Shown here one piece after another: positions 2,580 through 64,000 of a stretch of DNA of 64,000 bases. The translations under genes were made by a program, and so were the position numbers. Every line of letters starts with the position of its first letter. The first letter of the stretch is position 1. This DNA is from Botryllus schlosseri (lineage: Eukaryota). The notes below the pieces were generated by a model. That model searched no databases and was not told the origin of the DNA. It saw only the letters and a list, made by a program, of their open reading frames with translations. Location: assembly GCA_051294905.1 (NCBI GenBank), contig CM119371.1, positions 35,342,001 to 35,406,000 of the forward strand, read 5' to 3'.

Positions 2580-3605
2580 ATGCATCCCGGCATCAAAAAT
2601 CATCAATGTGATATATGTGGAAAATCATTTACATCGAAGGCTTACCTCAAGCTTCATTCGAACAAGCATACTGGCGTCAGAAATCATAAATGTGATGTAT
2701 GTGGAAAAGCATTCACGTGGAAGAAGAACCTCTTGTATCATTTGGACATGCATGCTGGCATCAAAAATTATAAATGTGATATATGTGAAAAATCATTTAC
2801 TTCGAAAGGTAACCTCAAACTTCATTTAAACATGCATGCTGGCGTTAAAAACCATGTATGTGATATATGCGGTAAAGCACTTACTTCGAAGGGTAACCTG
2901 AAACTTCACTTGGATATGCATGCAGGCATCAAAAATCATAAATGTGATATATGCGGAAAATTATTTACATCGAAGGCTTACGTCAAGCTTCATTCGGACA
3001 AGCATGCTGGCGTCACAAATTATAAATGTGGTATATGTGGGAAAGCATTCACAGCGAAGGGTCACTTCAAGCTTCATTTGGACATTCACGCTGACATCAA
3101 AAACCATGTATGTGAAATATGCGGGAAAGCATTCACTTCGAAAGGTCACCTCATGCTTCATTTGGACATGCATGCAGGCGTTAAAAACTATGTATGTGAT
3201 ATATGCGGAAAAGCATTCACATCGAAGAGTAACCTCAAGCTTCATTCGAACAACCATGCTGTCGTCACAAACTATAAATGTGATATTTGTGGGAAAGCAT
3301 TCGCATGGAAGGGTCACATCAAGCATCATTTTGACATGCATGCAGGCGTTAAAAACTATGTATGTGATATATGCGGAAAAGCATTCACATCGAAGAGTAA
3401 CCTCAAGCTTCATTTGGACATGCATGCAGGCGTTAAAAACCATGTATGTGATATATGCGGGAAAGCATTTACTCGGAAGGGTAGCCTCAAGCTTCATTTG
3501 GGCATGCATGCTGGCATGAAAAATCATAAATGTGATCTATGTGAGAAATCATTTACTTCAAAGGGTAAACTCAAGCTTCATTTGGATATGCATGCTGGCA
3601 TCTAA
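2580..3605 (+). CDS. Tandem C2H2 zinc-finger protein (gene A), 12 fingers, ending at a probably premature TAA
   Basis: 12 x C-X2-C-X12-H-X3-H with 28-aa period; first in-frame ATG at 2580 (the ORF-track start at 2508 is TTG; in-frame TAA at 2487); an upstream exon cannot be excluded. Confidence 0.9.
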   Translation: MHPGIKNHQCDICGKSFTSKAYLKLHSNKHTGVRNHKCDVCGKAFTWKKNLLYHLDMHAGIKNYKCDICEKSFTSKGNLKLHLNMHAGVKNHVCDICGKALTSKGNLKLHLDMHAGIKNHKCDICGKLFTSKAYVKLHSDKHAGVTNYKCGICGKAFTAKGHFKLHLDIHADIKNHVCEICGKAFTSKGHLMLHLDMHAGVKNYVCDICGKAFTSKSNLKLHSNNHAVVTNYKCDICGKAFAWKGHIKHHFDMHAGVKNYVCDICGKAFTSKSNLKLHLDMHAGVKNHVCDICGKAFTRKGSLKLHLGMHAGMKNHKCDLCEKSFTSKGKLKLHLDMHAGI

Positions 3606-3765
3606 AATCATAAATGTGATACATGTGGAAAATCATTTAGATCGAAGGCTTACTTCAGGCTTCATTCGGAGATGCATGCTGGTGTCACAAATTATAAATG
3701 CTATATATGCGGGAAAGCATTCACATCGAAGGGTCACCTCAAGCTTCAGTTGGACACACAACACT
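3606..3765 (+). pseudogene. In-frame zinc fingers stranded after the stop of gene A
   Basis: Same frame continues NHK-CDTCGKSFRSKAYFRLHSEMH-AGVTNYK-CYICGKAFTSKGHLKLQLDTQH. Confidence 0.85.
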
Positions 3766-4139
3766 GTTACGTTGATACCGCAGCAGCAATTCAATTCTGG
3801 GTCGCTGCACTGGTAATGGTTCATGAACCAAACTCGGAATTTCAGTAAAAAGCACACAACCACGGCCCCCTCCAAATCATAACTACACTACCGTACACAT
3901 GATGAAAGTGTAGATTTGTGGGCCTGTGGATTGCGTAAAGGAAAAGGTAGCCATGCTACTTTATTAGTCAGTGGCACGGGGACAAGTAAGCTATATGCCA
4001 GCTGTATGACGCAATAGTCAGTCGTCGAAAATTTCAACTTGCATGTGTCGACGGCCGTGTACACAGCCGTACATATATTTTCCCCCCCATTTGTTGGCCA
4101 CCACTGATATACAGTGATTACTTTTCTTTCAATGTTAAG

Positions 4140-4465
4140 AAACATGTTGCCTGATGTACTTGAATCGCCGCTACCCAATCCTTGCTCAAATTAATTTCCG
4201 CTTGTCCGCATATGGTGTTTTGGTGAATATAAGGTACGAACCACGCATGCCTTTGCCGAAATTGATGAGAAAATGCTATCAATATGTAAAATACATTATG
4301 CTGTTTATTTTACGAAATGTTACAGTATGCTGATATGACTTGTCGAAATATAGTCCTTTGGACAATCATTTATTCATTTCATTTGATTTTATTGGTTGAT
4401 GTGTATGATATGCAAGTATAGCGGTTGCGCTATTTATAATCCAATCATGCTCTTTGTTTAGATTA
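4140..4465 (+). other. Orphan copy of the ZNF-gene upstream block ending in the shared acceptor-like TTTGTTTAG|ATT
   Basis: Homologous to ~2305-2402, ~25250-25543 and ~62020-62277, but no finger exon follows. Confidence 0.75.
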
Positions 4466-5143
4466 TACTGGTCTACAAATTTCAAATAGATTTTTCGATA
4501 AAAATTACAATGATTGATCCAGGTTAATTTTAGGTTGCTGAATCCGACTATGTGCTCAGAATTTCTCTATCACGTCAGATTTTTTCGGTATGAATGTTTC
4601 TCATGTCATTAAATTATTCAAATTTCGGCTACCGTTAGTGGCATTACGGTGAGCGTAAAGCGGCTACAGATCCAATACTGTCATTGAAATTATCTATGAT
4701 TAAACCTGGGTGGTTGTAGTGCAGCAGGACAGAGTTTTCGTTGTACTCCAATCTAGTGGTTTTCTTTTTTCTTCAATTATGAGCTGGTTTCGACCCATAA
4801 AATTACACTGGTCTACAAGTTTCAAAAAAAAATTGCCCAAAAAATTTTAATGATCGACTAACGCTAGTATTAGGTTTTTGAGTCCGATTATGTGCTCAGA
4901 ATTTCTCCATCACGTCAAATGTTCTCGGTATGTATTTTTCTCATTTTCATAAATTAATCAAACTTCGGTTTTCGTTAGTGACATTATGGTGAGCGTACAG
5001 CAGCATTATATCAAATATTGTTATTGAAATGATCTATAATGATGAAACCTGGGTTGTTATAGAACAGAATGAGTGAGTTTTCAGTGAGCTTGCATCCAGT
5101 GGTTCTCTCCTTCTTTCAATCAGGACCTCTTTTCGGCCCATAA
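4465..5143 (+). mobile_element. Two tandem ~340-bp left ends of a CACTG-terminated DNA transposon (Chapaev/CMC-like, tentative); matching right end at ~7750-7855
   Basis: Units start (C/T)ACTGGTCTACAA and carry ...TCCGA(C/T)TATGTGCTCAGAATTTCTC(T/C)ATCACGTCA; inverted counterpart TGACGTGATAGA...GATTCGGC...GTAGACCAGTG at ~7757-7855. Confidence 0.55.
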
Positions 5144-5403
5144 TATTATATGTAGACTCAACCATTTTAGTCGATAGTAGTTATCACCATTATATACCAC
5201 TCATCGTTAAGATTTTGATTAGTAGCTCCATACTCAATTTAGTTCGCCACGTTATCTTTATACATCGGTCCTGCTGACTTAATCGATCGATGCATTTTGT
5301 GACAGTACCCTTCTCTTTCGTCAAACGTAAAAAGTTTGCAAACAATAAATATGATATTGTTAGTATATTATGTAGAAGGGAACTGTTCAATCAGGCACGT
5401 GAC

Positions 5404-6086
5404 TCATCATCATCATCATCATTGGTTTATTAGCAATTTTATCAGTTCAATACACCACAAAAAATGCGATACAATGAAAAGACAGGAAGATGTCGAAGCG
5501 ACAAGGAGTAGTCTATGGAATCTGACACCCACCTTGGCCTAGGCGATGTAAAGAGGAGGCATGCACACTGAATGAAAATAAAGAATATAGTATAGAAAAA
5601 GAAAGCGACAAGAAATAGGGCGGCATGTCATGGGAAGCGAGATCGATAGGTCAGTCGTGGTCCGGTAATCTTTAGGATGGACTGTATTTATTTAGTAGTA
5701 ATTGCTTGTATTTCGACTTGAATGTGGACATGCTCGTCGACTGTCGGATGGCCGGCGGGATGCTGTTCCACACATCAGGTCCGGCATATTTGATAGAGCG
5801 ATGATCTTTCCGGTCGATCATATGATATTTGGACGACGTGGACGCGCGTGTGTTGTACTTGTGCGCTTTTGATTCAGAGGTAAAGAAGTCATTGAAATAT
5901 TCGGGGCAACGACCGCAGTGAACCTGATACATAAACTTGGCGATTTCTAGTTTCCGCATATCTTCTATGTTTAGGACGCCGAATCTCTTCAGCAGCGACT
6001 TATTGGATGGGCAGCCAGGCCCCTTTGGGGCCGTAGCTATGATTCGAAATACTTTATGCTGTAGTTTCTGCAGTGGCTTGAGTGCC
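5404..6086 (-). mobile_element. 5'-truncated LINE (CR1/L2-like) 3' end: ORF2 C-terminus, 3'UTR and (ATG)n tail
   Basis: ORF 5672-5959 with KFMYQ..CP.YF..H.YNTR..SIKYAGPDVWNSIP..FKSKYK motif; high similarity to 48297-48975. Confidence 0.85.
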
Positions 6087-6120
6087 CTTTAAGCTTGTTT
6101 TGAAACATTAACATACAGGA

Positions 6121-6402
6121 GTGGCGAGATAGCGCAGTGGTATAATCCGCGGCTGCAACACCAATGGGCGCGGGTTCGAGTCCGACCGAGGTCGGCTTCC
6201 GAATTCCGATACCTAAGTGTTGGAGGTTTAACTAAGCTCCTCCTCGCCACCTCATCCGCGTCAGCGGTGTCTTACAAAAGCCTAGAGGTGGGCCGTGCTA
6301 TAAGTCGGCAGTTACGGAAAATAAGAAGAAAACCGGCCTGGTGTAAATGACCATAGTAGTCGACAAACACCATGAATACCCCCCTCCCCCCCAAAAAAAA
6401 AC
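6121..6402 (+). mobile_element. tRNA-derived SINE, family 1, full length
   Basis: A-box TAGCGCAGTGG, B-box GGTTCGAGTCC, A-rich tail; TSD TTAAC(A/G)TACAGGA at 6108-6120 and 6403-6415. Confidence 0.9.
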
Positions 6403-9471: not shown

Positions 9472-9748
9472 TGTAGGAACTCGTTTCCTACTGAGTAGTT
9501 AACTAACTACGTAACTCTCATTTCGATACTGAGAACGCCAGACAAGTACAGTTACACTCAATCTGTAATCACAACAACAATAATATATACATGCTCTCTG
9601 ACTGGCACCTTTTGAGCGTGCAAGTCAGAGCGGTACGAATGTATCAGAATGTTAATATTCGAACGGTAACGCGTCAGGAATAAGCGTAATACATTTGTGA
9701 GTCACGATCGCTTGGATATAGTTTGTAGGTGTATTATGTGCAGCTACA
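9472..9748 (-). repeat. 3' LTR
   Basis: Matches 13792-14068 except G9641 vs C13961. Confidence 0.97.
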
Positions 9749-9760
9749 CCACCCTCCACC
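9749..9760 (-). promoter_or_regulatory. Polypurine tract
   Basis: Purine-rich GGTGGAGGGTGG on the minus strand abutting the 3' LTR. Confidence 0.85.
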
Positions 9761-9778
9761 AGATCGTGACTAGGCTTT

Positions 9779-12700
9779 TCATGCTCGGAATCGAGGGGGC
9801 ACGTTAATCATTCTTCCGAAGCGAGTCTTCATCTGCTTGTTGCGCGTATACGTCGTGTCATCCTGTTCACGTTGGGAGCTTTCGGGTGATCGTTGCTCAT
9901 GATCTGGAGATGGTATGGAACGATCACGCAAGGGCGGTCTACCTCTTGTAGGTGGTTGCGCCGCCACGAATGGATGCTCTTTGTCAATGTAGGCTGGTTT
10001 GAGTCTGTCCGCCGAAACAAGTTCTTCGCGCAAGCCAATCCTCAGTCTGAAGACCTTCTCTCCTGGGGAGATTACCTCGTATGGTCCGTCATACGGTCTT
10101 GTCAGCGGGTGCCCATGTGCGCCTCTTCGCACGAAAACGAATTTACTGTTTGATAAGTCCGAAGTCACATGAGCTGATGTGTTTCCATGAGACGAGGTAG
10201 GGGTTGGGCGCAAACTTCCGGCAGTTTCTCGGAGGCGGTTAAGCAGTGGATTGTAGTTTGTAACGGTCTCAGGCGTGGCCATGAAATCTGCTGGCACTGC
10301 TATTGTCTCACCGTACACAAGCTCCGCCGAAGTCGACCCTAGGTCCGCTTTTGGCGTGGTTCGAAGTCCAAGTAAAACCCACGGTAGCTCGTCTACCCAG
10401 CCTGGATGCGTGCATCGAGCACGCAAGGCAGCCTTCATAGAGCGGTGGAAGCGTTCCACCAGTCCGTTGGCTTGGGGATGGTACGAAGTGGTCCTGTGAA
10501 GTTTGGTGCCGAGCAGTTCACAAACTGCGTCCCATAGTCTGGAAGTGAACTGAGGCCCTCGGTCAGATGACATATCTGCCGGAACGCCAAATCTCGCCAC
10601 CCAATTATACAGCAGTGCGCGGGCACATCCGGCGGCGGAAATGTCGGAAATCGGTATGGCTTCGGGCCACCTGGTGAACCTATCGACAATTGTAAGGAGA
10701 TACGTGTATCCCCGCGAGTGAGGCAAGGGGCCTACGAGGTCGATGTTCAGATGACTGAAACGCCTTTCCGGAACACGAAACGTTTCAAGAGCAGTTTTCG
10801 TGTGTTGGGTGACCTTCGACTGTTGGCAGGCGATGCAAGACCTGCTCCACTGGTTCACGTCTTTTGCAAGACCCTTCCACACATACTTGGCGCTTACCAA
10901 ATTCTTAGTGGTCCTAATGCCCGGATGGGACAAGGTGTGTACAGCGTCGAAAACCCGTCGTCGCCACGATGGTGGAACCACCGGCCTCGGTGTCCCAGTG
11001 CTGACGTCACAAAGCAAGGTGGACCGCCCACCGTCAAATGGAATCCTCTGTAACTCAAGGCTGGTATCGCGTAGATCAAGGTCCGTTTGTTCTCGTGCCA
11101 TCGCTTGGAAATCAAGGCCGTCGTCGATAGCGTTGACGGTGGCACGCGACAGTGTGTCCGCTACCGAGTTGCTTTTCCCAGAAACGTGCCGTATATCAGT
11201 CGTGTACTCACTGATTGCGGCCAATTGTCTGGATTGCCTGGCCGACCACGGTACAGATTTCTTCGCCATAGCAAAAGTCAACGGTTTATGGTCGGTGTAG
11301 ACGGTGAAGTGACGTCCTTCCAGAAAGTAGCGGAATTTTCTGATGCTCAGATGAATCGCCAGCAGTTCCCTATCAAAAGCACTGTACTTTCTTTCAGCAT
11401 TATTCAGTTGACGGCTGAAGAAGGCTAACGGCTTCCAAACACTCCCCAACTTCTGTTGGAGGACGCCTCCAACAGCCACATCCGACGCGTCTACTGTTAA
11501 GGCGGTTGGCGCGTCCGTTTTAGGATGCACCAAGAGCGTGGCCTTGGCTAAAGCAGCCTTAGTAGCGTTGAAAGCCGTGGTCATGTCTGTTGACCACTGG
11601 ACAGTTTGAGTCTTGGATTTACGACCTGCGGTTGCTCTGTACAGAGGCTGCATAATTTCCGCAGCACTCGGTAGAAATCTGTGGTAAAAGTTCACCATTC
11701 CATTAAATTCCATAAGTTGCTTGACCGTCCGAGGCGCAGGAAAATTGCGGATTACCTCCACCTTCTCAGGAAGAGGCTTGATGCCGCTGGCTGAAACTCG
11801 ATGGCCGAGGAAATCGAGCGTGGACCGGCCAAATTGACATTTGGTGGGGTTTATCACATGCCCGTGTTCACGAAAACGGGAGAATAATGTCCGTAAGTCT
11901 GCTAAGTGCTGTTCTTGGTCTTGGCTCGCAATTAAGACGTCGTCAAGATAAACAAACACGTTTTGAAGCCCTTGACAGACAGAATCCATCAAGCGTTGGA
12001 ATGTTTGTGCCGCGTTTTTCAAACCGAACGGCATTCGTAGAAATTCAAAGAGTCCGAAAGGCGTGGTGATTGCAGTCTTCGCCACGTCCTGTGGCCTGAC
12101 GGGGATTTGAAAATATCCCTTCACAAGGTCGACTTTTGAAAACACCGATTTTCCATCCAAGTTGTGTGAGAAATCTTGAATGTTAGGGACCGGGTAACGA
12201 TCCGGTGTCGTGGCATCGTTCAAGCGCCTGTAATCGCCGCAGGGGCGGCTTTCGCCATTGGCTTTTGGAACTACATGCAGAGGAGACGCCCACTGGCTGC
12301 TGGACCTGCGTATAATCCCCAGTCTTTCCATGTTGTCAAACTCATCTTTCGCGGCTTTGAGACGGTCAGGGCGCAATCTGCGTGGGCGCGAAAAGACGGG
12401 TTGGCCGGTCGTTACGATGTGGTGTTCCACACCGTGTTTCGGCTGTTGTAGTTCAAAAGACGGTTTGGTAATCTCGCTGAATTCATCGAGAAGCTTCGAG
12501 TATACCGTATGTGGATGCTTTTCGACTACATGGAGTTGCATGTGACGAGACCATGACAGGTGGCCTACGACAGCTGTACGGCATGTAGAAGCTTCAAGGA
12601 GCCGTCGCCCACCTATGTCAACTAGGAGGCTATGCCGCAAAAGGAAATCTGCTCCGAGAATGGGACGAGAAACGTCCGCGAGGACAAACCGGCACTCGTA

Positions 12701-12952
12701 CGTTTTGGTACCGATGTGCAGTATTTCCGTTCTGTATCCATAAGTCTTGATCTCTGAGCCATTTGCTGCTACCAGAAGGGGATCGGTATTGCGAGAGAGG
12801 CGATCAGAGCGTAGAGCGGGAAGGATGCTAACCTGGGCTCCTGTGTCTACCAGGAACCCGCGGCCGGATTTGGCATCGTTGATGATCAAGAGGCAGCTAC
12901 GAATTCCACCAACCGCGTCAGCCTCTAACCGCGATCGGCGTCGTCGTTTCCC
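9779..12952 (-). CDS. pol: Pol polyprotein (protease, RT, RNase H, integrase), entered by a predicted -1 frameshift from gag
   Basis: FLVDTGA protease; LRMPFGL and YLDD RT; VDASD RNase H; HTLSH...CIAC zinc motif; IDLVG/SDRG/VERF DDE integrase; GPY module; frame open from the slippery site at 12946-12952. Confidence 0.95.
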   Translation of the reverse strand, partial: GKRRRRSRLEADAVGGIRSCLLIINDAKSGRGFLVDTGAQVSILPALRSDRLSRNTDPLLVAANGSEIKTYGYRTEILHIGTKTYECRFVLADVSRPILGADFLLRHSLLVDIGGRRLLEASTCRTAVVGHLSWSRHMQLHVVEKHPHTVYSKLLDEFSEITKPSFELQQPKHGVEHHIVTTGQPVFSRPRRLRPDRLKAAKDEFDNMERLGIIRRSSSQWASPLHVVPKANGESRPCGDYRRLNDATTPDRYPVPNIQDFSHNLDGKSVFSKVDLVKGYFQIPVRPQDVAKTAITTPFGLFEFLRMPFGLKNAAQTFQRLMDSVCQGLQNVFVYLDDVLIASQDQEQHLADLRTLFSRFREHGHVINPTKCQFGRSTLDFLGHRVSASGIKPLPEKVEVIRNFPAPRTVKQLMEFNGMVNFYHRFLPSAAEIMQPLYRATAGRKSKTQTVQWSTDMTTAFNATKAALAKATLLVHPKTDAPTALTVDASDVAVGGVLQQKLGSVWKPLAFFSRQLNNAERKYSAFDRELLAIHLSIRKFRYFLEGRHFTVYTDHKPLTFAMAKKSVPWSARQSRQLAAISEYTTDIRHVSGKSNSVADTLSRATVNAIDDGLDFQAMAREQTDLDLRDTSLELQRIPFDGGRSTLLCDVSTGTPRPVVPPSWRRRVFDAVHTLSHPGIRTTKNLVSAKYVWKGLAKDVNQWSRSCIACQQSKVTQHTKTALETFRVPERRFSHLNIDLVGPLPHSRGYTYLLTIVDRFTRWPEAIPISDISAAGCARALLYNWVARFGVPADMSSDRGPQFTSRLWDAVCELLGTKLHRTTSYHPQANGLVERFHRSMKAALRARCTHPGWVDELPWVLLGLRTTPKADLGSTSAELVYGETIAVPADFMATPETVTNYNPLLNRLRETAGSLRPTPTSSHGNTSAHVTSDLSNSKFVFVRRGAHGHPLTRPYDGPYEVISPGEKVFRLRIGLREELVSADRLKPAYIDKEHPFVAAQPPTRGRPPLRDRSIPSPDHEQRSPESSQREQDDTTYTRNKQMKTRFGRMINVPPRFRA

Positions 12953-13710
12953 TGTCGGGTCTTTCTGCGACGGGCGTAGCGCACCGTGTGCGGTGCCGAA
13001 GATTCACTTTTCTGCTTAGACACCAACTGGGCAAATGTGCACCCTTGTTTGCAGTTCGTAGCCTTCATACCGAAAGTTTTGTGGTAGTGACAAATGAAAA
13101 CTCCGGTTGCGCTGTCTACTTCTGCCTGTGGGGCGATATCCTGCGCGTCATGGCGTAGGGCGCTCACGTTGACTGTCTGAGTTGCGAAAAACACTCTATC
13201 CGCAACTTCGGCCAGTTTTTCAACATCTGTTTCTGCGGATGTGGCCAGCGCTGTTCGCACTGCAGCAGGTAGCTGGGCCAACCAGAACGCTCGCAGTAAT
13301 GTCTCTTGACTGCCACCTAGCGCACGCATGTGTCTCAACAAACCAGACGGCTTTCTGTCTCCTAAGCCGGCTATGTTAAGAAGTTCAGAGTCCTTAACTT
13401 CTTGTGGCTTGCCATATACTTTGATTAGCGCGCTTTTGATAGCAGGGTACTTTTCTGTTGCTGGCGGTTCAGTAAGCAGAGAGGAAATTTCGCTAGCAGT
13501 GGCGTTATCCAACACCGAAACCACATGGTTAAATTTCGTATCATCTCGAGTGATGCTTGCAGCCTCGAACTGAGCTTCAGCTCTAGCGAACCACAAAGTA
13601 GGGTTGTCAGTCCAGAGTGACGGAAGTTTAACGCTTACCGCATTAGCTGACGAAGGGATGACGAGTTTCTTCAGTGCGTCGGTCAATCCTTGCATAGCGG
13701 CGGTATCCAT
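12925..13710 (-). CDS. gag: Gag protein with CHCC zinc knuckle
   Basis: First ATG at 13710 (MDTAAMQ...); KLPSLW...WFARAEAQF N-terminal motif; CHYHKTFGMKATNCKQGC = C-X2-H-X9-C-X3-C. Confidence 0.9.
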   Translation of the reverse strand: MDTAAMQGLTDALKKLVIPSSANAVSVKLPSLWTDNPTLWFARAEAQFEAASITRDDTKFNHVVSVLDNATASEISSLLTEPPATEKYPAIKSALIKVYGKPQEVKDSELLNIAGLGDRKPSGLLRHMRALGGSQETLLRAFWLAQLPAAVRTALATSAETDVEKLAEVADRVFFATQTVNVSALRHDAQDIAPQAEVDSATGVFICHYHKTFGMKATNCKQGCTFAQLVSKQKSESSAPHTVRYARRRKTRQGNDDADRG

Positions 13711-13778
13711 GTTGGAAAGCGTCCGTATAATCCTGGCTGTGCACAATACTTGCGGTCTTCTGGAGTCTTCCAGGTAGT

Positions 13779-13790
13779 TCGGGGTCACCA
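13779..13790 (-). promoter_or_regulatory. Primer-binding site complementary to tRNA-Trp 3' end
   Basis: TGGTGACCCCGA one base after the 5' LTR; matches the start of the known tRNA-Trp PBS (TGGTGACCCCGACGTGAT). Confidence 0.85.
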
Positions 13791-13791
13791 A

Positions 13792-14068
13792 TGTAGGAAC
13801 TCGTTTCCTACTGAGTAGTTAACTAACTACGTAACTCTCATTTCGATACTGAGAACGCCAGACAAGTACAGTTACACTCAATCTGTAATCACAACAACAA
13901 TAATATATACATGCTCTCTGACTGGCACCTTTTGAGCGTGCAAGTCAGAGCGGTACGAATCTATCAGAATGTTAATATTCGAACGGTAACGCGTCAGGAA
14001 TAAGCGTAATACATTTGTGAGTCACGATCGCTTGGATATAGTTTGTAGGTGTATTATGTGCAGCTACA
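13792..14068 (-). repeat. 5' LTR
   Basis: 277-bp direct repeat of 9472-9748. Confidence 0.97.
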
Positions 14069-22202: not shown

Positions 22203-22309
22203 GTGTATCGGATATAAATGCATATCGAGTATATAAATGTATATCGGTCACATTGTAATTATGAAATAGTTTCGTTATTAGCACTGAGTAGAAAGACAGT
22301 GGTATAGAT

Positions 22310-31133: not shown

Positions 31134-31135
<2 letters not shown>

Positions 31136-37965: not shown

Positions 37966-37970
37966 TAGAC

Positions 37971-48296: not shown

Positions 48297-49465
48297 TTTC
48301 ATTCATTCATTGGTTTATTAGCAATTTTATCAGTTCAATACATCACAAAAAATGCGATACAATGAATAGACAGGAAGATGTCGAAGCGACTTGGATTTGT
48401 CAATGGAATCAGACACCCACCTTGGCCTAGGCGTAGTAAAGAGGAGGCATGCACACTGAATGAAAGTAAAGAATACAGTAGGCCTATAGAAAAAGAAAGC
48501 GGCAAGAATAGGGCAGCATGTCATGGGAAGCGAGATCGATAGGTCAGTCGTGGTCCGGTAATCTTGAGGATGCACTGTATTTATTTAATAGTAATTGCTT
48601 GTATTTCGACTTGAATGTGGACATGCTCGTCGACTGTCGGATGGCCGGCGGGATACTTTTCCACACATCAGGTCCGGCATATTGTACAGAGCGATGATCT
48701 TTCGGTCGATCATATCATATTTGGACGACGTGGACGCGCGTGTGTTGTACGTGTGCGCTTTTGATTCCGAGGTAAAGAAATCATTGAAATATTCGGGGCA
48801 ACGACCGCAGTGGAACTGATAGATAAACTTGGCGATTTCTAGTTTCCGCATATCTTCTATGTTTAGGACGCTGAATCTCTTCAGCAGCGACATGTTGGAT
48901 GGGCAACCAGGCCCCTTTTGGGCTCTAGCTATGATTCGGAGTACTTTATGCTGTAGTTTTTGAAGTGGCTTGAGTGCAGTTTTACTGGCAGCCCCCCAGC
49001 ACAGGATGCCATAATGTAACTTCGATTGGATTAAGGATTTGAAGAGTATCAGAAGAACCCATGCTGGCATGAAGCGCCTAAGGCTGTAGAACATAGGCCG
49101 CACTTCGGTGATAATTTAGTGTCTAGGGACTGAATATGACTCTTCCAGGACATGTTCGAGTCCATAAAAACCCCGAGATATTTGGCATTATCTGTGTTGG
49201 AAACGGGCTGTCCAGCGATATTAACGGTTAGGTTATTTTTTGAATTGACTGTCAGCAATTGGGATTTCAAGGCGTTTATGCAAAGGTTGTTCTGAACCGT
49301 CCACTCATGGACTTTAGGCATTTGGTCACTAGTCAGTGCATCCAGCTCTGCCGTCGAACATGCGGAAGAAAAGAGGTGAGTATCACCAGCGAACAGTGTG
49401 GTGTTCAATGAGGAGGTTTCAAAAATGTCGTTGACATATAAGGTGCAACCCATACTTTATTAAGC
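48297..49465 (-). mobile_element. 5'-truncated, frameshifted LINE (CR1/L2-like) with RT remnant
   Basis: LFAGDTHL (degenerate [Y/F]ADD), KYLGVFMDSNMSWKSHI, LHYGILCWG; (AATG)n tail. Confidence 0.9.
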
Positions 49466-52400
49466 CTTCTAGAGGTACAAATTTGCGTCACAGTGACTTG
49501 CAAATGTGCGTCTCTAATTATATGGTATTTACTTTTATCTTCGCGCCTCTCGCTAATCGAACTGTTAACACAAAAATATAATGATTGTTCAGCGAAAAAA
49601 GCAAAAAGGCGACTTGACATGATATTTTACGCGTGTCCGAGGCTCAGATGTGCCGTTTGTCTGCCACCACACCCGCTTTTGTTACCGGGCTTTCGATTAC
49701 GCAATTATTACAGTGCGCAAATATTAATTCACTACGGCTGGTGAGAGGAAAAGGTATTGTAAAAGGTACGGTTAGTGGTGCGTCATAAGTAGGGCGTTCA
49801 ATTTGTCAAAATTTTGTATCGTAGATTTTGCACTGTCGGTGAACTTATCATTTGATATTTTACAGCTTGAAGCCTACTTTATAAGCCTACCGTTTTAAAT
49901 GGCTTTGGTTGTCTGCTCATTGTGAATCATAAACATTCACATAAAACAAATAGGTAGACATGGTGTTATGGTCAACGTACCACAATATCCTAACTGAAAA
50001 AAGACTTATTGGGCATTGTATCATTCTTATATTAAGAAGCGCATAATGAAAAAGTGTGATGTTGACAGCATTGTCAGGATGAAGCAAAACGGTGTGTCAC
50101 CAGCAGTGTACGCACAACTTGAGTCTTGTCAGCCAACAACTGTTGCTGTGGAACATCCTTGGCAAGCTTCTTGTTAAGGGCATGCACTTTCTACCCAAGA
50201 ATGTGGGAAAGTATCTCTCGTTGAACGTCAAAAATATTTTATTATTTCTGCCATAATACGTATTGTAACCACTTGAATTCTTCATAGGGCCAGATTTCGT
50301 AGAACTATCGTTTTTTTTTCATGTAAAAATTTGTCTGTTTCTAAGGCGAAAACGATTTTTCAGGCCAAACTACTTCGTTAGGACAGCCGCTCTAACCAGA
50401 AATGAAGATAAGTGATACAATTTACCATTATGTGAGAAAACACCTCATTTGTATATGTTAGATCAAAATTTTGATTTTTTTGGTCCAAATCTTCCTTTTT
50501 TAGGTAAAAAAAAACGTCCTAGTCATAAGTAGAAATAGTTTTTAGAAATGAGTCGTAACCCCAAAGTTATAGGTAGCCACTGCACTTGAATTTCTTATTA
50601 GTTTTATTTGAATAATTCCACATCAGAAAAAGTAGCAAGTATTTATGATTTTGGTCCGCATTCATTCTGATTTCAATCCGCACCGCGTTCGTCAGCCGCA
50701 TTGCAATTTGTTTCATTCCCACAAGTGCGTACCATCCCACAGGTTTGAAAGCACTGGTGTAATCCGAGGATATACAACGGGCGTGTCAAACTCGACTGAC
50801 GTCGCGGGCCGGATTCAACACTTCAGATCGCTCGCGGGCCGCACCAAAATTCCTCAGTCCCAAAATATCTCAAAGTCCATTCTTTTTTTCATTTGAATAC
50901 TTCATAAACCAGCCTATATACGCAATAGTATATTATATTACATTACGGGTGATGGGGTTCTATTCTAGCTGCACCTTTATTCGCAAACACTGCAATTGGC
51001 TATAATATGAGGGTTGTGCGGGTAAATACAGTTATAAATAGGGTTGCATTAACAACAAAAACCAATTTAAAACGAACATTTTTAAAACAAGGCCCTTTTA
51101 AAAACATTTCTTTGAAGCCATGACGTCACGAATATTCAATTGTGACGTCACATTGGATTGAAATTGACATTTGAAAATATAGGGTAAATATAGCTCCTTT
51201 GACGAAATATATGTATTATTGTTGTTGAACCGAGTATTTTGAGGGTTCCAACCATCCCATATCAATATACGTCGGCTACATCTGGTGGTAATTGTCCGTA
51301 GGCTCATACAACATGTTTTTTAGAAAGTATTTACACAATTATGGCATATTTTTACAACTTAAAAAAAACACTATTTTTTTAGATGGCCTTTGTTTAAAAC
51401 ATGATTTAAACAAAGTGTTTTAAAACACCGTTTGTTTCAAATGCAACCCTAGTGCTCGATAATACACGCATTTGACAATCTACTCAGAATTGCTTCGCGG
51501 GCCGTTTGTTTGACACCCTTGATATACATGAATGATATGTATAATATAAATAACACCATGCCCGTAACAATTAGCTAACGTTTATCTCCGATTGTTCAGT
51601 ATAATGCCTATTTCTGACTTCAAGCACACTTTCCGGGTGGCTTGAACTGATGTGATTTACATTTTCGCAATCGGTGATGTAATAGTGATCAATGTATTCT
51701 AACAGCTCACGTAAAACCGTACAACCAGTCACCATCCCCATGTTCTGTCGATCGCTAGACCGGAAAAGCAGTTGGAGCGTAAAGAAAATTCATTCAATAC
51801 TTGCATCTATCAAAATCCCATGAGCAGTAAAGTAGCTTTCATTGAAAACAAGTGTCATTGCATTTCGCCCTCGGGCCCCCAGCTATAACACTAACAAATC
51901 GTTCGTTGACATTCTACGTTTACATTCGATACTGGATCAGTCTTGTTCTGCGTCCGCTATTCGAAGCAGAAGCACTAAGCATTTCAGAGGCGTTGCCGCG
52001 GTTAGTTTCGTGTGGTTGTTCCATAAATCGCAGATTTGTGTATGAGCAGGAATAGTTGTTAGGGTACAAAGTTATCAGATTAGATGCGATTCATGTTACC
52101 ACGCCTTCGCATAGACTTTTAACAGATTCGCGATGTAAGCAGTCGGATCAGTTCATCTCAAATCAGAATTACTTCTACCGTGATACGCATTATGTAACGT
52201 AACGTAACTCATGTCTGAGTCCTTCGGCGCGTGTCTGGGACAATGGCATGTACCTAATTCAAGTCATCAAGTAATCGGTGGCGATAAAATTCACTGTGTC
52301 CTGCATATGTTCGGATTGTTCGCAATGCGCCGGTGTGACCTATGAGAGCGACTGCTCATTCAATGATCATGCGTTTTACTGAGCCACCATTTTTCAATCA

Positions 52401-53399: not shown

Positions 53400-55430
53400 T
53401 TAATTGTTGATTATCCGCCTCCCGATAAATAAAAATGAAACAATAGGCCTAAATAAAAATACACATAATGTAACGAATTGAATGTATCTGTATTCTTGAG
53501 TGCTGCCTGTGCTTGTGGGACTAATAGGTACAATCTTTTGGGCGCAAAGAAGATATATCAAGGCAAATAGAGTTTTGGCCAACACGAAGTACGATCTCAG
53601 AAAGATCTCCAGGGATGAAACCTTGACCGAAGATCGCGCCGGATTGCCTTGTCCTTGCGGTATGAGTCCCGCGGTACAAATGCGATAAACAGAGTGAAGT
53701 ATTTCGCCCCGTGAATGAATGCAAATTGGGAACCGTACGCGTCTCACTAAAGAAGAGTCTCTTTTAATTTGTTTTTGAGTCGCAACAGCCGTCTCCGGAG
53801 GTCAAGAAATAACAGCATGCTTCAACAAAGTAGGGGAGATGTGGTACCGATGGATCAAAAATTGCAAAATGATCTCTGGCCCTCAAAACTCCAGCCGAGA
53901 ATAGCAGATCTTTTGCTGTCTCAACACTTCGATACAAGCTCTACCTATCGCGGACATTTACATGAATATCCGCCTTTTCAAAACATATTTATAAACGTTT
54001 AAAGTTTGTTGCTCGAACGTGTCATCGGTCCCCACCCGGTGGGTCCAAAGGCACACGACCATGGGACCTATGAGACATACGGTCAAAAACTCAAATTTGA
54101 TAACTTGTTTCGTTGTGTTATAAGCTAAGCTACAGCATGCCAATGAAGAATCTTTCGTCGCGACCTTCAAGAATAAAATTGACTGTATCAACTCAAATGT
54201 TGGCATAAAATCATGTTTTGATTTACGTCTAAACTTACAAAATTACTGCCACATACATATTACCCGCAAATCTACATTTGGACTTCCAAATACCTCGTAA
54301 TAGCGATAAAACAGCACGGGTACCTATGAATTACAGCATATATATATGTAGGCGAGTTTCTGTTGTTAAGTGATTAGTTGGTCCATCTATTTTGCTTGAT
54401 TTGGCTAAGGTACCATAGGTCCCCCACCCCATAAATATTGCAATTGACTTGAAAATAGTCCAGTCGAGGATGGTATTGATTCAAAACATATGTGTCATTA
54501 TATACCCTGATACAAGCCCTATACTTCACATAAAAAATTATGGCGGGTTTCTTAGTCTGAAAGTTGATATAGAAAAATGCAAATGTTGATCCAAATTTAC
54601 TTTACACCCCCTAAAACGTAAATCATTCGTCACAGACCCCATAACTCACGCAGGTCGAATTTTTTTGCATGTAAGGAAAGATTCTGTCAGCATATAACTG
54701 TAGACAGATTCACGGAGTGTAATCATGGAGTTATCATGGAGAATTTTTCAAGTATTTTCGGTCCCAGTGATCCATCGGTACCACATCTCCCCTAATTAAT
54801 GACGATTGGCCCCCGACGCTCACCCTGGATAAACTAACGAATGGTTTTAACGTATGGCACAGGCATAAACAGATAGATCAAGATGTATAATCACTTGCCC
54901 TCTGAATCTTTGAATTCAACGCTTCTATCAGCTCTATCGATAAATATGATTGTGGTTTTCCATAATATATATAAAAATATTCTAACCTCCCAATATGCCT
55001 GTTGGTGGAATAAATGTATAAAGTTCTCACCAGAAGTTGTGTTAATCACCAAATAAGAGCCCAAAAACGACCTTTTGTGCTATATTTTTCCATGTCTTCA
55101 ATGGTGGTTCTTTTACTTCATTGAATCCTGGACATCGCATCGCTAGCAGCTTTTATGGTGTTCTGTGTCATCACTGTTTTCTTGTGAAATACCATGCGAG
55201 TGAAAGTTTTTAATTTTATATTGTATTGCAGCGTTACGTAAGCGTTACACCATACATTATGCAGAAATAGGATCGATTTTTATTATTTCAAAGCGAATTC
55301 TGCAGGCGCACTTATTAAAATCAGTGGTAGTATCAGCAAACTCCACGCCTTCGATTTGATATAAACGAATGCTGACAATCCATTTCCACAAAAATAGGTG
55401 TTGACGAATGTAATATTAGCCCGTAACGCA
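53400..55430 (-). pseudogene. Decayed hAT transposase relic interrupted by TA-MITE copy 3, tentative
   Basis: Ordered broken motifs FADTTTD (first catalytic D region), CLCHTL (CxxH) and FSETR (SxTRW-like). Confidence 0.45.
53833..54792 (-). mobile_element. TA-targeting MITE, copy 3 (inverted)
   Basis: Reverse complement of 280-1237 with TA flanks. Confidence 0.9.
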
Positions 55431-56849: not shown

Positions 56850-57829
56850 CAGTGTTGGGATGACTCGAATCCCCTTTTTCGTATGACTTGACTTGACTCG
56901 AGTCACTTTGCTAAAATGACTTGACTTGACCTGTCTCGGCGTATTCGAAATGTGGATTGACTCGTGACTCGGAGCAAAATTCACGAGTCAATTTCAAGTC
57001 ATCAATTAATCGGTGTCGATAAAAATCTATATCTGGCATATGTTCGGATTGTTCGCGAAACGCTGGTGTAACCCATGAGAGTGACCAATCATTCCATGAT
57101 CGTGCGTTTTACTGACCCTCCATTGCTCTCTCACATATATATTGACCTTAAACAAAGTGATCGAATCTTACAGCCTACGTTGTCGTAAACTAGTAGTAAA
57201 GTCATTAAATAGTAAAGTGTCTATTTTCGTTCTCACCTTCACCAAACCTCTTGTTTTATTGAAATTGAATTCGAATATAGTTTATATAGTTCTCAACCAT
57301 TGGCGCAGGCTTGAATTGTATCATATCAATTTGTAAATGGGTGATACATTGCATTATATCAATTCGTTTCTCTGTTCTATATTTTGGCTGGTAACTATAA
57401 ACTGAGGCTATGCAATTACGTACGTCGAGGTGGGCCGTGCTATAAGTCGGCAGTTACGGAAAATAAGAAGAATATCGGCCTGGTGTAAATAACCATAGTA
57501 GTCGACAAACACCATGAATACCCCAAAACAAACGTACGTAGTTTAACAGTTCTACGTATATGTGAGCGATACAGCGCCTTCTTGCGTGTATATTGACGTG
57601 ACGTAATCATGCGTCATACTTTGAAAAGGCAACTTGACTTGAATTGTGACTTGACTCGTGACGTGACTTGACTTGACTCGACTTGACTCGAGTCACCTCC
57701 AAAAATCGACTGACTTGACTTGACTCGAATCACCTTCGAAAATCGATTGACTTAACTTGACTCGAGTCAAAATGTTCAATGACTCGAAATGACTCGTGAC
57801 TCGAAGGTAGTGACTTGATCCCAACACTG
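56850..57829 (+). mobile_element. hAT-like MITE with (GACTT)n/GACTCGAGTC subterminal arrays and a nested SINE 3' fragment (~57427-57530); related pieces at ~17250-17526, 18451-18900, 23750-23903, 52255-53085
   Basis: TIR CAGTGTTGGGAT / ATCCCAACACTG; no clean TSD. Confidence 0.8.
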
Positions 57830-58693: not shown

Positions 58694-60212
58694 ATCTAGG
58701 GTGAGATATGGGCTGACACTGACATATTCGACCATAAACATAAACAAGCCAGAGTTGCGTTCCAATATAAATGGTGTTCACGTGCAGTCGTTACTAAGGG
58801 TTTCTACGTTCAACATGCGACCAGAGTTCAAAGATCTTGTCGACAACTTTGATCGACCATACATGTCTCATTTGACTGCTATTGAAGTATATTACGTTAA
58901 TAAATTCATTCAATACTGTTTTGACCTCTGTGCTTTAAACTTAAAGTTGACATTAAATACGATTTATTCCTCGTACATAACGCAAGGCGAATGTCTTTGT
59001 GATGTTTTACTTGTGTAATCTGACTTCAGAAGGTTATACTGTACCATTCGCTGCCTATATCTTCTTATCGACGGACCTGCGACCACGGCAGTGAACGAAT
59101 TGTTGAATTAGTTACCATATAGTCTGCGTCGTACACACATATATCAAAATCACGCGGACGACTGTCTTGTTTGTTTTGCCTTCAAGACATTTTTGAGTGA
59201 ATCGTACCAAAATGTAAGACCGAATGAATATAAATGCATATATATTTTACGTTTTAATACATACATATATATAAATATGTATTATTTCCTATCGATATTT
59301 CATACACCACACCACATGTCTTGTCGAGTTTTAATATCCTGTATCAAGCTTCGAGATACTGCATGCACTTCAATCAATGTGATTGCCCTGACGTGATAAC
59401 CAATATATGTTTCATTTCCCGTATCATGTTTCCTGTATCATGTTATATATAAAGTTATAATGACCTTCCAGCTATCGGCTTCTGAAATTTCGGGGTTTCG
59501 TGCAACCACCCAGAAAACTTGCCTGGATCCGCCATCAAAAACGTTTAGGAAGCCCTGATCTACAGTGATTACTTTTACTTCAATGGTAAGCATCACGTTG
59601 TCTAGGGCAGTCATTACCAATGATGTATATGCAACCCCAATATCATATTGGAAAGTTCACAATGCCACCTGTTTGATATTAGATATTTAAACGTGCCACT
59701 ATTCAAGTCTCTGCAAGAAAATGTTCGCGAAGACCTGTTATGGACCACTCACGTGATTGCGATCATTATAATATATCTAGCGGGCCTACAGGAAACTTGC
59801 CACAGACAGGCAGTTGAGCACGGCTGGTTTTGCGAACTTGAGTCGGCGGTACCCAATCCTTGCTCCGATAAATTCTTTTTCTTGACAGCGTACAGCAACT
59901 ACTCTAGTTGGCGGGTCGGATATCGAAAAATAAAATACTTGGTGGTCCGGATTCCTGAATCAATACATTAATTATGTATTTATCCACCTACGATGAATAA
60001 ATCGTATTTAATGCAAACTGTAAGCGTACAGCATAGAGAACAAAGACCTTAGTCAATGAATTTCTTGACGTTATGTAGCCTACTTCAATAGGTCTTGAAG
60101 TCAATGAGACATGTGTGGTCGATTAAGGTTCTTCACAAGTTCTTTGAACTCTGGATGTCTGCACGGGAACATACATTAGATTATAACGCCGCTTTACCTC
60201 GTTGATGTTCAT

Positions 60213-60870
60213 ACAGGGGTGGGCAAACCGAGGCTCGCGGGCCACATGCGGCTCTTTCAGCCTTTGTTTGCGGCCCTTTAATGATTGCACAATACAGATG
60301 CGTGTCGTCATTTTGCTCGAGGGGATTATCCTGATTATAAATTGAAGCATGACGTGATGTTTTCGCGTGGTTTCTTTCCTTATGTTCTACGCATTACTGG
60401 TATAAGTTTTGAGGAATGTGGCACTACAGGGCTAGAACTTTACAATTGTACTCTCAAATCGAGTTCACATAAACATTCCACCCACAGTCCCACAACAATG
60501 GTGCCCGGTCATCAATGAATCATAAGTCCTTGTATTCAACAATGAACTCGATGATAAATTAATCACGTCAGCGCAGGTCACAATCATTTCCGGGTTAGGA
60601 ATGGTGTCAAGTTGTCAAGTTGTATTGTAAAGGCTGGTAATAGCTGCAGAATTAATTCAGGAAAATGTCGTCGTCATATAATTGCAAGCAAACAAAGTAT
60701 GATCAGAAAAATATTACTGCAACTTGAAACATCATTACGAAACCAAACACCAAAACCTTGCCACGAGTTACCCAACGCAGACAGATTTACAGAATAATAA
60801 AAATACCGAGCTGAAATCGTCCTTAAATTCTCATCAGCGATATATCATTGGCAGCAACATGCGTAGTTGG
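60213..60870 (+). mobile_element. hAT (SPIN/Buster-like) 5' fragment with transposase N-terminal remnant
   Basis: TIR CAGGGGTGGGCAAACC; LKHHYETKH...ELKSSLNSHQ resembles the LKRHYETKH...ELKxxLxxQQ motif. Confidence 0.7.
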
Positions 60871-62563
60871 AATACCTTCTATTCACAACACCCTCGCAGG
60901 CCCATTCCGTCCATGGTATAGAGCAGCGTTTCTTAAACTTGTCTCCATTTTTTGTAATTTTTAAGGGGGCGGAAACGCTCCGGGGGAGAATGGCGGGGGG
61001 GGGGGCGATGAGCTCAGGGGGCGGTATGAGGGCGCTGAAGAAAAATGGCATCGCAGTAGATGGTGTAGTAATGACAAATGATTATATAGTAGAGCGATAG
61101 TTCTATATATCCCTGAGTTCTCAGTGCAAACGAACATCGAACATTCGACAAAATCTGTCAAATCACAACGTTATTCGTTGCGCTCATCGCAAAATATCCA
61201 CCGATCATGTTTCCATGAATGCAGAGGTTTATTTTATCTCATGTATATTGAATGAGGCGTAGTTTTGGATTGGCAATTCTCCGTTATACTACTGCCTCCT
61301 CGCTAGCTACCCCAATTCGACACCTTCCTATATTTTCATTGTATCGATGTTTTGCGACGTTTTGAAATGATGTAAATATTAATCCACTGATACTTGAACT
61401 GATAGCTCGGGGTTGTTCTCTACAAAATGTTTTGAACTAGCTGTTGTATCCTGCAGTGCACTGCGTGTCGAAATCGAAAGGGCACTGTAGGCTACTGTAC
61501 ATCTTTGAGAGTGATGCCCTTTGTACATTGAAGATGTTTTGAAGCTTTTTGACCAAAATGATTAACTAAATATACTTGTATTTGAGAGCTACAAAATTAA
61601 GTCTCCAGAATATTTTTTCATCGTATCACAATCAAATGATACTGCTAAGTGTTGTTACCGATTCATGTTAAGGCTAAGAGCTTGGTGCAGCACTAAATTC
61701 AATGTGAGCAAATCTCTACCACAGAGGAGAGGAGAGAGGAAAATTCGGGATGTGTACATCGATCTCGAACCAAATGCTATGAGCGTGTGAGCCCGTAGGC
61801 CTTAACCGATGGTAGTTATAACAACTTTGATTTGTTCCCGAAAATAGCACATACAATTATACCGTTAATTAACCGAGTGGTTACATTATAATAGTGAAGT
61901 CCCACCCGAAATCGGAATTCGACCACTTGCCCATTGTTTTTTACTACAGTCCATAAAATAAGGCGCGCCGGACCCAGACAATTTTGTAAGGGGCGCCGGA
62001 GAAAAAAAAATAAAAACCATTGGTATGGAGCGTCTTAGTGAATATAAGGTATTTCAACCAAGCATGTTGCAGTCGAAATGCTGAGAAAAGGCTATCAATT
62101 TGTATGGTACATGATTCGGTTTATTTTCCGAAGTGTTACGGTATGCTAGTATGGCATGTTGATATGCAGTGACAGGACTATCATTAGTGTATTCCGTTTG
62201 ATTCTATTGATTCATTTGTATGTTATACATATAGCAGTTGCGCTGTCTATAGTATATTGATGCTCTTTGTTTAGATTATTTCTAAACATATGAGATATTG
62301 TCAGATGGTTACGAAGCTAATTTATATCTGCAGAATAGAGTTGGAAAAAGTAAAGCGTGACATCTGTTCAAATCCTGTGTTAACACTTTAAAGTTAAAGA
62401 CTTGGACTCGTTTATCGTCCTAACTGTCATATATGAAAGTGTGCCTTGATACCTGTTGCAAAAGGAGTGACAAGACATCAAATATTCTAACCATCGAGCA
62501 CGACTTGAAAGATCCTAGCAGCGACATTTAAAAGAAAATATTTCATTTGATCACGAGTTTCAA

Positions 62564-62655
62564 ATGGATATGCATGCTGGTACCGAAGATCATAAATGTG
62601 AAGTATGTGAGAAATCATTTACTCTGATGGGTAGTATCAGCCGACATATGGATAT
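62564..62655 (+). pseudogene. 5' part of zinc-finger gene C (first finger), interrupted by a MITE
   Basis: MDMHAGTEDHK-CEVCEKSFTLMGSISRHMD|insertion; read-through into the MITE stops at TAA 62672-62674. Confidence 0.85.
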
Positions 62656-63275
62656 TAGGGCTGTTCAAAAATAACTTTTTTTTCCCGATTCAAGCCGTTC
62701 ACCTCTTAAATCGTCAGGTTACCCTAAAAAACGCTGCACACCAAATTTGGTTCAATTCTAATAAGTATAGGGCTCCGCGGATCCAATTGAATTTTTTAAT
62801 TTAAACAGGAAAATTGAAAAAAAAAAAATTCCAAATTTTTCTGCCAACCCCATGAAATTGTTGAGCTGTCTTCAAAGACGTTGCAAAACAAATTTGAGTC
62901 AATTCCGACCAGTAGAAGCGGAGTTATTGGAGTTTTTCGTTGATATTTCTCGGATTATCCTTGATTGGTGGATAATCCGCGATTTATCAACGAAAAACTC
63001 ACATAACTCCGCTTCTACTGGTCGGAATTGACTCAAATTTGTTTTGCAACGTCTTTGAAGACAGCTCAACAATTTCATGGGGTTGGCAGAAAAATTTGGA
63101 ATTTTTTTTTTTTTCAATTTTCCTGTTTAAATTAAAAAATTCAATTGGATCCGCGGAGCCCTATACTTATTAGAATTGAACCAAATTTGGTGTGCAGCGT
63201 TTTTTAGGGTAACCTGACGATTTAAGAGGTGAACGGCTTGAATCGGAAAAAAAAAGTTATTTTTGAACAGCCCTA
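62656..63275. mobile_element. 620-bp near-perfect palindromic hAT-type MITE inserted in gene C
   Basis: Perfect 8-bp TSD ATGGATAT (62648-62655 and 63276-63283); ~305-bp arms reverse-complementary apart from homopolymer length and a few central mismatches. Confidence 0.95.
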
Positions 63276-64000
63276 ATGGATATGCATACTGGCGTTAAAG
63301 ATCATAAATGCGATATATGCGGGAAAACATTTGCATTGAAGGGTACTCTCAAGCGCCATTTAGATATGCATGCTGGCGTCAAAAATCATAAATGTGAAAT
63401 ATGTGGAAAAGCATTCCCTTCAAAGGATGCCGTCAAGCTGCATTTGGACGTGCATGTTTGCATGAAAAATCATAAATGCGATATCTGTGGAAAAGCGTAT
63501 ACTTGTAATGGCTCCCTCAAGCGTCATATGGAGGTGCATGCTGGCGTCAAGCATCATGGATTTGAATGCGATATTTGTGGAAGAGCATTTTCCCGTAGGG
63601 AGCACCTCAAGTATCATATGGATTTACATGCTGGTATGAAAGATCATGAATGTGATATATGTGGGAAAGATTTTACACAGAGACGTTCCCTCGAGAGACA
63701 CATTAAGATGCACGCCGGCGTTAAAAAACACGAATGTGATGTATGTGGGAAAGCATTTAGTTGGCAGTATATGCTCTTGCAACATAAGGTGATGCATATT
63801 GGAATAAGAAATCATAAGTGTGATATATGTAAGAAAGCATTTAAATTAAAGGATGACCTCGTGCGTCATATGGTGATTCATGCTGGATTCAAAGATCATA
63901 AATGCGATATATGTGAAAAAACATTTATATCAAGGCGCTCCCTCAAGCTTCACGCGGCCAGGCATGCTGGCGTCGGTTATATATGTGATATATGTGGAAA
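63276..64000 (+). CDS. 3' part of tandem C2H2 zinc-finger gene C, 8 complete fingers plus a partial ninth, open to the window end (absent from the ORF track)
   Basis: Manual translation from ATG 63276 (MDMHTGVKDHK-CDICGKTFALKGTLKRHLDMH...) has no stop to 64000. Confidence 0.88.
   Translation, partial: MDMHTGVKDHKCDICGKTFALKGTLKRHLDMHAGVKNHKCEICGKAFPSKDAVKLHLDVHVCMKNHKCDICGKAYTCNGSLKRHMEVHAGVKHHGFECDICGRAFSRREHLKYHMDLHAGMKDHECDICGKDFTQRRSLERHIKMHAGVKKHECDVCGKAFSWQYMLLQHKVMHIGIRNHKCDICKKAFKLKDDLVRHMVIHAGFKDHKCDICEKTFISRRSLKLHAARHAGVGYICDICG

Follow-up and report, generated by a model that had tools for sequence, protein, structure and literature searches.

The closest described counterparts of the genes considered here are the ZF271-like/APEZ families of Oncopeltus and pea aphid, which form tandem clusters of C2H2 zinc finger (ZNF) genes without effector domains and include pseudogenes (PMC6444547). 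The same milkweed-bug study reports no correlation between transposable elements (TEs) and ZNF genes within Hemiptera. TE-linked ZNF expansion independent of accessory domains has been described across metazoans, with exceptions such as flies (PMC10547256), and large lineage-specific C2H2 expansions are described in cephalopods (PMC12513265). Here we analyze 64,000 nt of the sea squirt Botryllus schlosseri (assembly GCA_051294905.1, contig CM119371.1, forward-strand positions 35,342,001 to 35,406,000; this whole stretch is called the window and is numbered from its first letter), which carries, clustered in tandem, three C2H2 genes composed of fingers alone (A, B and C) and two finger-less remnants (D and E). 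With a probability of roughly 0.6, we read the cluster as a lineage-specific birth-and-death family that binds double-stranded DNA in the usual way and whose targets shift with the base-contact residues.

Like the ZF271-like/APEZ genes, the cluster has the finger array as its sole domain, consists of a few tandem genes including disrupted copies, and represents an independent lineage-specific expansion; in both cases the role is deduced. It differs in animal lineage, in a linker without Thr and Pro, and in having a single finger exon behind a leader that is closed in every frame. An aphid protein among our database matches was 39% identical, similar to other unrelated arrays. An initial sequence-only reading had proposed an undescribed system; this is not supported, because effector-less C2H2 clusters are known from Oncopeltus and pea aphid (PMC6444547) and accessory-independent, TE-linked expansion is known across metazoans (PMC10547256).

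Tetrapod KRAB genes, as described in PMC2604467, share with the cluster the clustered paralogues that gain and lose fingers, the one finger exon, the 28-residue units and the variable contacts. They bind TEs and recruit TRIM28, whereas here no upstream exon that would join a KRAB domain to the fingers in frame was found within the window, TGEKP linkers are missing, and the splice acceptor leads into a closed frame. The FiNZ-ZNF genes of cyprinid fish likewise lack KRAB, expanded independently in TE-rich DNA and have contacts that change fast, but they have a 28-aa acidic coding exon ahead of the array, not seen here in frames of at least 48 aa, and knockdown evidence of TE repression (PMC10547256). 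A wrasse (Cheilinus undulatus) protein labeled 'zinc finger protein OZF-like' at its source (P0046) has linkers such as AGIKDFK and AGIRDFT, several of them without Thr and Pro, and helices with Lys at +1 and Leu at +6; it differs in its long N-terminal region, paired fingers and identity of 41%, and the likeness of the linkers is likely convergent. PRDM9 has an internally duplicated, homogenized finger array with variable contact residues, as the arrays here do. In contrast to PRDM9, the cluster is a multi-gene family with neither a SET or KRAB domain nor a near-identical finger minisatellite, its fingers being far less alike (nearest neighbors differ at 4-24 of 84 nt).

Protein database searches revealed no family member in the top 120 matches to gene B (188-601 aa; highest identity 52%), in the top 120 to the finger profile (76-249 aa; highest 49%), or in the top 150 representatives for a query of leader plus two fingers, which were dominated by long generic arrays (highest 48%). 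The ESM Atlas returned generic C2H2 clusters only. In the literature outside subscription journals, we found no paper on the family or its linker and none containing AGIKNH or AGVKNH. The B. schlosseri genome is reported to have a GC content of 40.5% (41.0% in the window), an N50 of 30 Mb, a heterozygosity of 3.63% and 63% repeats (PMC12448946). It apparently holds 310 C2H2 genes versus 72-193 in other tunicates, as we infer the column order of the published table (PMC8122590).

Three finger arrays, each with a lesion

A six-frame scan located three C2H2 arrays, all on the + strand, at 2607-3677 (A), 25750-26727 (B) and 63309-64000 (C). As the sequence-only reading had noted, they are paralogous and share upstream sequence, which shows ~70-75% mutual identity. 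The finger exon of gene A (2400-3761, +) follows an acceptor AG at 2398-2399 and begins with a 180-nt closed leader, the first in-frame ATG lying at 2580. It contains 13 intact fingers and a 14th unit without either His, with a TAA at 3603-3605 after finger 12. The array breaks off at 3761 inside flank block X, and the 3′ end of the gene appears to have been deleted.

The finger exon of gene B (25541-27104, +) has a 176-nt closed leader, an ATG at 25717, 12 fingers, a TGA ending at 26748 and an AATAAA at 27099. A frameshift at its end (26722-26727) makes finger 12 finish in Cys-His, leaving an H-x4-H or C2HC finger, and a frameshifted remnant of a 13th finger lies at 26728-26788. The encoded protein is strongly basic (66 Lys and Arg versus 20 Asp and Glu).

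In gene C, the leader and first finger (62275-62655, +; in-frame ATG at 62564) run up to a palindromic, 620-nt miniature inverted-repeat transposable element (MITE; 62656-63275), which splits finger 1 between its two His residues. The MITE is 88% like 45878-46495 and is flanked by an 8-nt target duplication (62648-62655 and 63276-63283), a length by which it is presumably hAT-like. This duplication supplies a new in-frame ATG at 63276, which could restart the gene past the insertion. Fingers 2-9 and the beginning of finger 10 follow (63276-64000, +) in a frame open to the window end.

The earlier count of 12, 12 and at least 9 fingers therefore stands for B, whereas A has 13 intact fingers and a His-less 14th with a stop after finger 12, and C has a MITE-split first finger, eight whole ones and one cut by the window end. 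Each gene does carry a different lesion, as had been claimed, yet Met-initiated frames of 12, 12 and at least 8 fingers remain. Of the three, gene B is the most likely to be alive; A has been truncated or has died recently, and C is disrupted by the MITE or rescued by the new ATG.

Array growth and selection on the fingers

The nearest relative of a finger belongs to the same gene in 26 of 34 cases, and gene B contains a 249-nt three-finger repeat. The arrays grew by internal duplication of units of one to three fingers, which would have spread a founder linker. These in-array nearest fingers, together with the ghost copies described below and the lack of a close database relative, support the earlier proposal that finger-only genes expanded independently in this lineage, with birth and death of copies.

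To measure selection, the ratio of nonsynonymous to synonymous change (pN/pS) was obtained by pairwise counts after grouping the 34 finger units into 17 non-overlapping pairs, with uncorrected tests and gene conversion ignored. Zinc ligands showed a ratio of 0.07 (p = 4e-14), indicating purifying selection, and the core (0.34), the linker (0.42) and helix positions +1/+5 (0.37) were also constrained. In contrast, the base-contact positions -1/+2/+3/+6 reached 1.10, and contact and non-contact positions differed strongly (p = 8e-9). Contacts in gene B alone gave 2.46 (p = 0.004, 6 pairs), and a transition weighting of 2 (estimate 2.2) brought the overall contact ratio to 1.32 (p = 0.075). The suggested comparison of contacts with the framework thus found contacts that are clearly freer, with a ratio above 1 in gene B but not convincingly overall. 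Within the linker, Gly2, Lys4, Asn5 and His6 were held (0.22-0.30, uncorrected p 0.001-0.014; 0.31-0.42 at the strongest correction). The simplest reading of these ratios is that a founder linker was spread by within-array duplication and partly maintained, the Thr/Glu/Arg lock simply having been lost.

Acceptor, closed leader and ghost copies

The upstream block of A, B, C and D ends in 13 consecutive invariant bases around the acceptor AG (4/4 copies). The distance from acceptor to finger 1 is 207, 209 and 322 nt in A, B and C, giving three different phases, and every leader has 3-8 stops in every frame. Stops at the equivalent upstream site of A and B, already noted from the sequence, were confirmed (TAA at 2487-2489 and TGA at 25627-25629). 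Because of the stops in all frames and the three phases, the invariant acceptor cannot bring an upstream effector exon into frame. The first in-frame ATG originates in the terminal part of a decayed finger immediately before finger 1, seen in the gene A leader as an nhmmer match at 2520-2585. Each gene has a single exon, which combines the acceptor, the closed leader, the Met contributed by the decayed finger and an array of 8-13 fingers. A candidate cis donor lies 216-238 nt upstream of the acceptor in B, C and D, and a short cis intron is possible, trans-splicing being the alternative; no reads fell at the gene B acceptor in the four runs aligned. In Ciona, trans-splicing is reported for about half of the genes, the putative outrons averaging 438 nt (PMC4691747).

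Flank blocks W, X and Y recur in the window at 64-82% identity, all of them non-coding, and their recurrence outlines what reads as an old tandem duplication that includes the ghost units D and E. Copy 1 of block X (3761-4042) is 67-70% like copies 2 (27901-28508) and 3 (41079-41663). Ghost copy D (4104-4466, +) retains block Y and the invariant acceptor (AG 4460-4461) but has lost all fingers; a few bases past the acceptor, a ~340-nt tandem repeat (4462-5148) cuts it off. The block W copy that precedes gene B (21315-23505) is non-coding and consists of pieces co-linear with 30351-40394 (64-82%). It is followed by an intron- or outron-like block Y (24853-25540, +; acceptor AG 25539-25540), which has a 112-nt duplication around an inserted repeat and a candidate donor at 24950/25324. 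Ghost unit E (30351-41663) comprises a fragmented block W (30351-40394) and then block X copy 3, with neither acceptor nor fingers between them. Block Y of gene C (59555-62274, +) is split by insertions into three pieces (59555-59603, 59836-59874 and 62032-62274; acceptor AG 62273-62274). Coding exons in W, X or Y were ruled out, since codon periodicity is absent from the shared flanks; gaps were multiples of three in 3/3 cases in one X pair and in 2/13 in a longer X pair.

The alternative that survives best, though we consider it unlikely, is that all copies in the window are dead or dying relics of an ancestor in which an effector exon lay upstream and the spacer was coding; the closed leader would be that spacer in decay, and the selection signal on the fingers would be historical. 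The gene A acceptor indeed shares the reading frame of the fingers, the leader terminates in a decayed finger, upstream ATGs are many, every gene has a lesion, two copies have no fingers, and RNA depth is low. However, the gene A leader has three stops in the finger frame, and the A and B leaders have diverged by ~29% without codon bias (mismatches by codon position 18/18/23, p = 0.22, no third-position excess), whereas across 32 intact fingers the arrays show a single stop and no frameshift. This contrast in decay indicates that the leader has been non-coding for far longer than the fingers could have been free of constraint. The acceptor is still invariant, and the loss of one finger in a B-like contig preserves the frame, both of which also count against relics.

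Linkers and recognition helices

The fingers are classical C2H2 repeats of the PF00096 type in having C-x2-C-x12-H-x3-H units with a Phe/Leu core and 28-residue spacing, but the TGEKP-type linker of that class is missing from the cluster genes. Linkers were counted between intact fingers (n = 30) and helices in 34 finger units. The sequence-only statement that almost every linker is AG(I/V)KN(H/Y)(K/V) was too strong, as the exact consensus is present in 10/30 (A 6/12, B 3/11, C 1/7), with six residues in 4/30 linkers and nine in 1/30; its non-TGEKP part holds, because Thr (1/30), Glu (0/30) and Pro (0/30) are lost while Gly2 is kept (27/30). Lys at helix +1 was said to be nearly universal and Leu at +6 frequent: Lys +1 occurs in 29/34 fingers, invariantly in A and B (26/26) but not in C (3/8), and Leu +6 in 19/34, chiefly in A (12/14; B 5/12, C 2/8). 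Lys also occupies +5 in 26/34, and +9 is Asp or Glu in 20/34 and never Arg, Asp+9/Thr-2 being the commonest pair at finger boundaries.

In 240 database hits chosen for likeness to the cluster genes, seven-residue linkers had Pro in 703/942 and Thr or Ser in 764/942 cases, and Arg+9 was present in 34% of 1526 fingers. A private repeated linker (e.g. TGKKP or TGVKP) was found in 18/150 proteins with at least three linkers, Pro being kept in 17 of the 18, and at least one linker without both Thr and Pro in 3/240 hits and 2/150 representatives. Private linkers are thus common, and one without both Thr and Pro is rare, though not unique. In an AlphaFold model, each of five modelled fingers folded into two short strands and a helix; the model does not fix finger packing (predicted template modelling score 0.26), and Foldseek matches, which included PRDM9 finger structures, had root-mean-square deviations of 9-18 Å.

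According to PMC11327367, the linker Gly caps the preceding helix, the linker Lys contacts the DNA backbone, and the conserved linker residues are Thr, Lys/Arg and Pro. Arg+9 is described as giving the most versatile DNA-binding geometry as well as backbone contacts, and another binding mode favors Ser/Thr at -2 and tolerates varied residues at +9 (PMC7293014). Helix +1 contacts the backbone, and residues of this kind let contact residues drift (PMC5588721). Loss of the linker Thr, Glu and Pro together with Arg+9 would weaken or re-angle finger-to-finger docking, and the retained linker Gly and Lys, Lys at +1 and +5, the strongly basic chain and the long array would restore affinity for the backbone. 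The altered binding mode proposed from the sequence is therefore plausible as an altered finger-finger interface, with usual DNA binding still favored.

These losses, with the frequent Leu+6 and acidic +9, would also fit fingers that mainly bind RNA or proteins, linker and Arg+9 having been lost once wrapping around DNA was no longer needed, and loss of Arg+9 is reported to abolish function in some cases (PMC7293014). We regard this as improbable: variation is concentrated at -1, +2, +3 and +6, the positions that contact DNA bases, the 28-residue spacing and the linker Gly and Lys are kept, and the common Thr-2 with diverse +9 is tolerated in one described binding mode (PMC7293014).

Search for an effector domain

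A Pfam scan of the three array open reading frames gave finger families above cutoff or finger-like cross-hits only. KRAB, SCAN, ZAD, BTB and SET were absent from all of the other + strand frames of at least 48 aa outside the Gypsy element (230/230), which yielded two finger fragments and three sub-cutoff chance matches; the region far upstream of gene A lies beyond the window start. This agrees with the earlier remark that no such domain is visible. Should the proteins act on chromatin, they would do so through occupancy or finger-binding partners rather than through a fused repressor.

Such a scan could miss a short N-terminal effector exon of ~30 aa, similar to FiNZ, that splices to a second acceptor nearer finger 1 and bypasses the closed leader. 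The FiNZ domain has only 28 aa on its own exon and is unlike known domains (PMC10547256), small distant exons get missed, according to Emerson and Thomas (PMC2604467), and the length limit of the scan and the truncated gene A upstream region leave room for one; in gene B, an AG follows a short pyrimidine run ~30 nt before the ATG. We nevertheless give this possibility little credence, because that AG lies in a different phase in A and is missing from C, the shared upstream blocks show neither codon periodicity nor frame-keeping gaps, and no read joint into the array from upstream was seen, although the power to see one was low.

Possible expression of gene B

Four of the 24 listed sequencing runs were aligned to 22500-28500 at 90% likeness, 6-13% of each raw run being read. 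None of the listed datasets that contain the sequence is on record as RNA, and one such dataset had a share of 0.11. Contigs from run X1, whose RNA nature is guessed, span 26071-26881 of gene B at ~92-97% identity, and one of them is without an 84-nt (one-finger) unit. Raw RNA reads of X8 and X4 have variants at the gene B 3′ end in common with the X1 contigs, and X8 shares three small deletions in the 3′ untranslated region with them. Among the in-frame variants displayed, 7/7 change an amino acid, including helix -1, +2 and -2, with 204 more differences beyond these; reads diverge from the window by 3-8%. These results suggest low expression of gene B or of a very close paralogue. A variant in the RNA runs deletes the finger 12 His at 26722-26727, possibly leaving a C2HC finger. 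In run X7, six reads match gene B from a loose end at 26203 and are preceded by a different finger with an apparent stop, which suggests that a broken paralogue is transcribed from another place.

RNA depth in the aligned region peaked over an abundant ~270-nt repeat (27412-27600; also 1963-2235, 6121-6377, 20394-20661 and 57427-57533) with a poly(A)-like loose end and no tRNA or Rfam match, one copy of which sits ~300 nt past the gene B AATAAA.

Evidence against the preferred reading, and possible targets

Several observations weigh against a functional DNA-binding family under birth and death. All three genes carry a lesion, and the 3-5 upstream ATGs in every leader are unfavorable for translation. 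The contact pN/pS does not demonstrably exceed 1 overall (p = 0.34), in A (1.00) or in C (1.07), and the higher values obtained by pairing on non-contact columns (1.54-2.06) are biased upward because this pairing lowers pS. Linker Ala1 (0.78), Ile/Val3 (0.66) and acidic +9 (1.06) are unconstrained. TGEKP is reported to predict DNA binding (PMC11327367), a prediction weakened by its absence here. Depth on gene B was ~1-14 reads, with almost none in run X7, and neighboring unique bins including 25314-25715 had zero depth in the four runs, leaving the gene B 5′ end unseen. The reads look unstranded, and 97-99% of aligned raw reads fit only in part, such that paralogues or DNA carry-over may contribute. 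Finally, nothing in the window links the fingers to transposons.

Repeats may be the likeliest target class, by proximity and by analogy with the correlation of TEs and ZNF genes across metazoans (PMC10547256), a proposal that could go either way. The boldest version is a transposon-recognition family that is specific to sea squirts and works without a repressor. Its compact cassette, a trans-splice acceptor followed by a single finger exon, would be easily duplicated, and Lys +1/+5 and a selected linker Asn would replace the Thr-Glu-Pro/Arg+9 lock. Without the linker Thr, the proteins would be spared the linker phosphorylation by which C2H2 proteins are removed from chromatin in mitosis (PMC4359306) and could stay on repeats through division; we think this version very improbable. 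If gene B and its kin do bind young repeats, the cluster would offer a clean invertebrate-chordate test of transposon policing by arrays without a fused repressor, a question left open for insect finger-only families (PMC6444547) and FiNZ-ZNFs (PMC10547256) in those reports. For the interface between fingers, too, the arrays provide a natural experiment, since Thr, Glu, Pro and Arg+9 have been lost jointly while contact residues are still changing. Otherwise, this is one more lineage-specific zinc finger cluster.

Transposons and other repeats in the window

The description of the surroundings as a transposon graveyard is apt in part. A second in-window copy or Gypsy interior accounts for 35,090 of 60,373 non-finger bases (old segmental duplicates counted in), but the Gypsy element itself is intact and young. 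This Ty3/Gypsy retrotransposon (9472-14068, -) has open gag (12925-13818) and pol (9779-13003) frames, 277-nt long terminal repeats and a 4-nt target duplication; its terminal repeats differ at 1/277 nt, indicating a very young insertion. The closest relatives of its pol reach a best identity of 87%. The element is nested in another repeat, an uninterrupted copy of which lies at 36935-37970.

No Rfam families or tRNAs were found across the window. Three segments (5419-6088, 48307-49456 and 31399-31752, the last on the - strand) are 3′ fragments that resemble the ends of long interspersed nuclear element ORF2; a Pfam match is absent. A non-coding element of ~965 nt with 28-nt terminal inverted repeats is present in three copies that are 93% alike (278-1241, 42173-43138 and 53829-54794). 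A 2.4-kb repeat pair without long frames (14538-16978 and 49826-52252) shows 91% identity, and an old head-to-tail duplication of ~350 nt, 72% alike, occupies 29404-30100.

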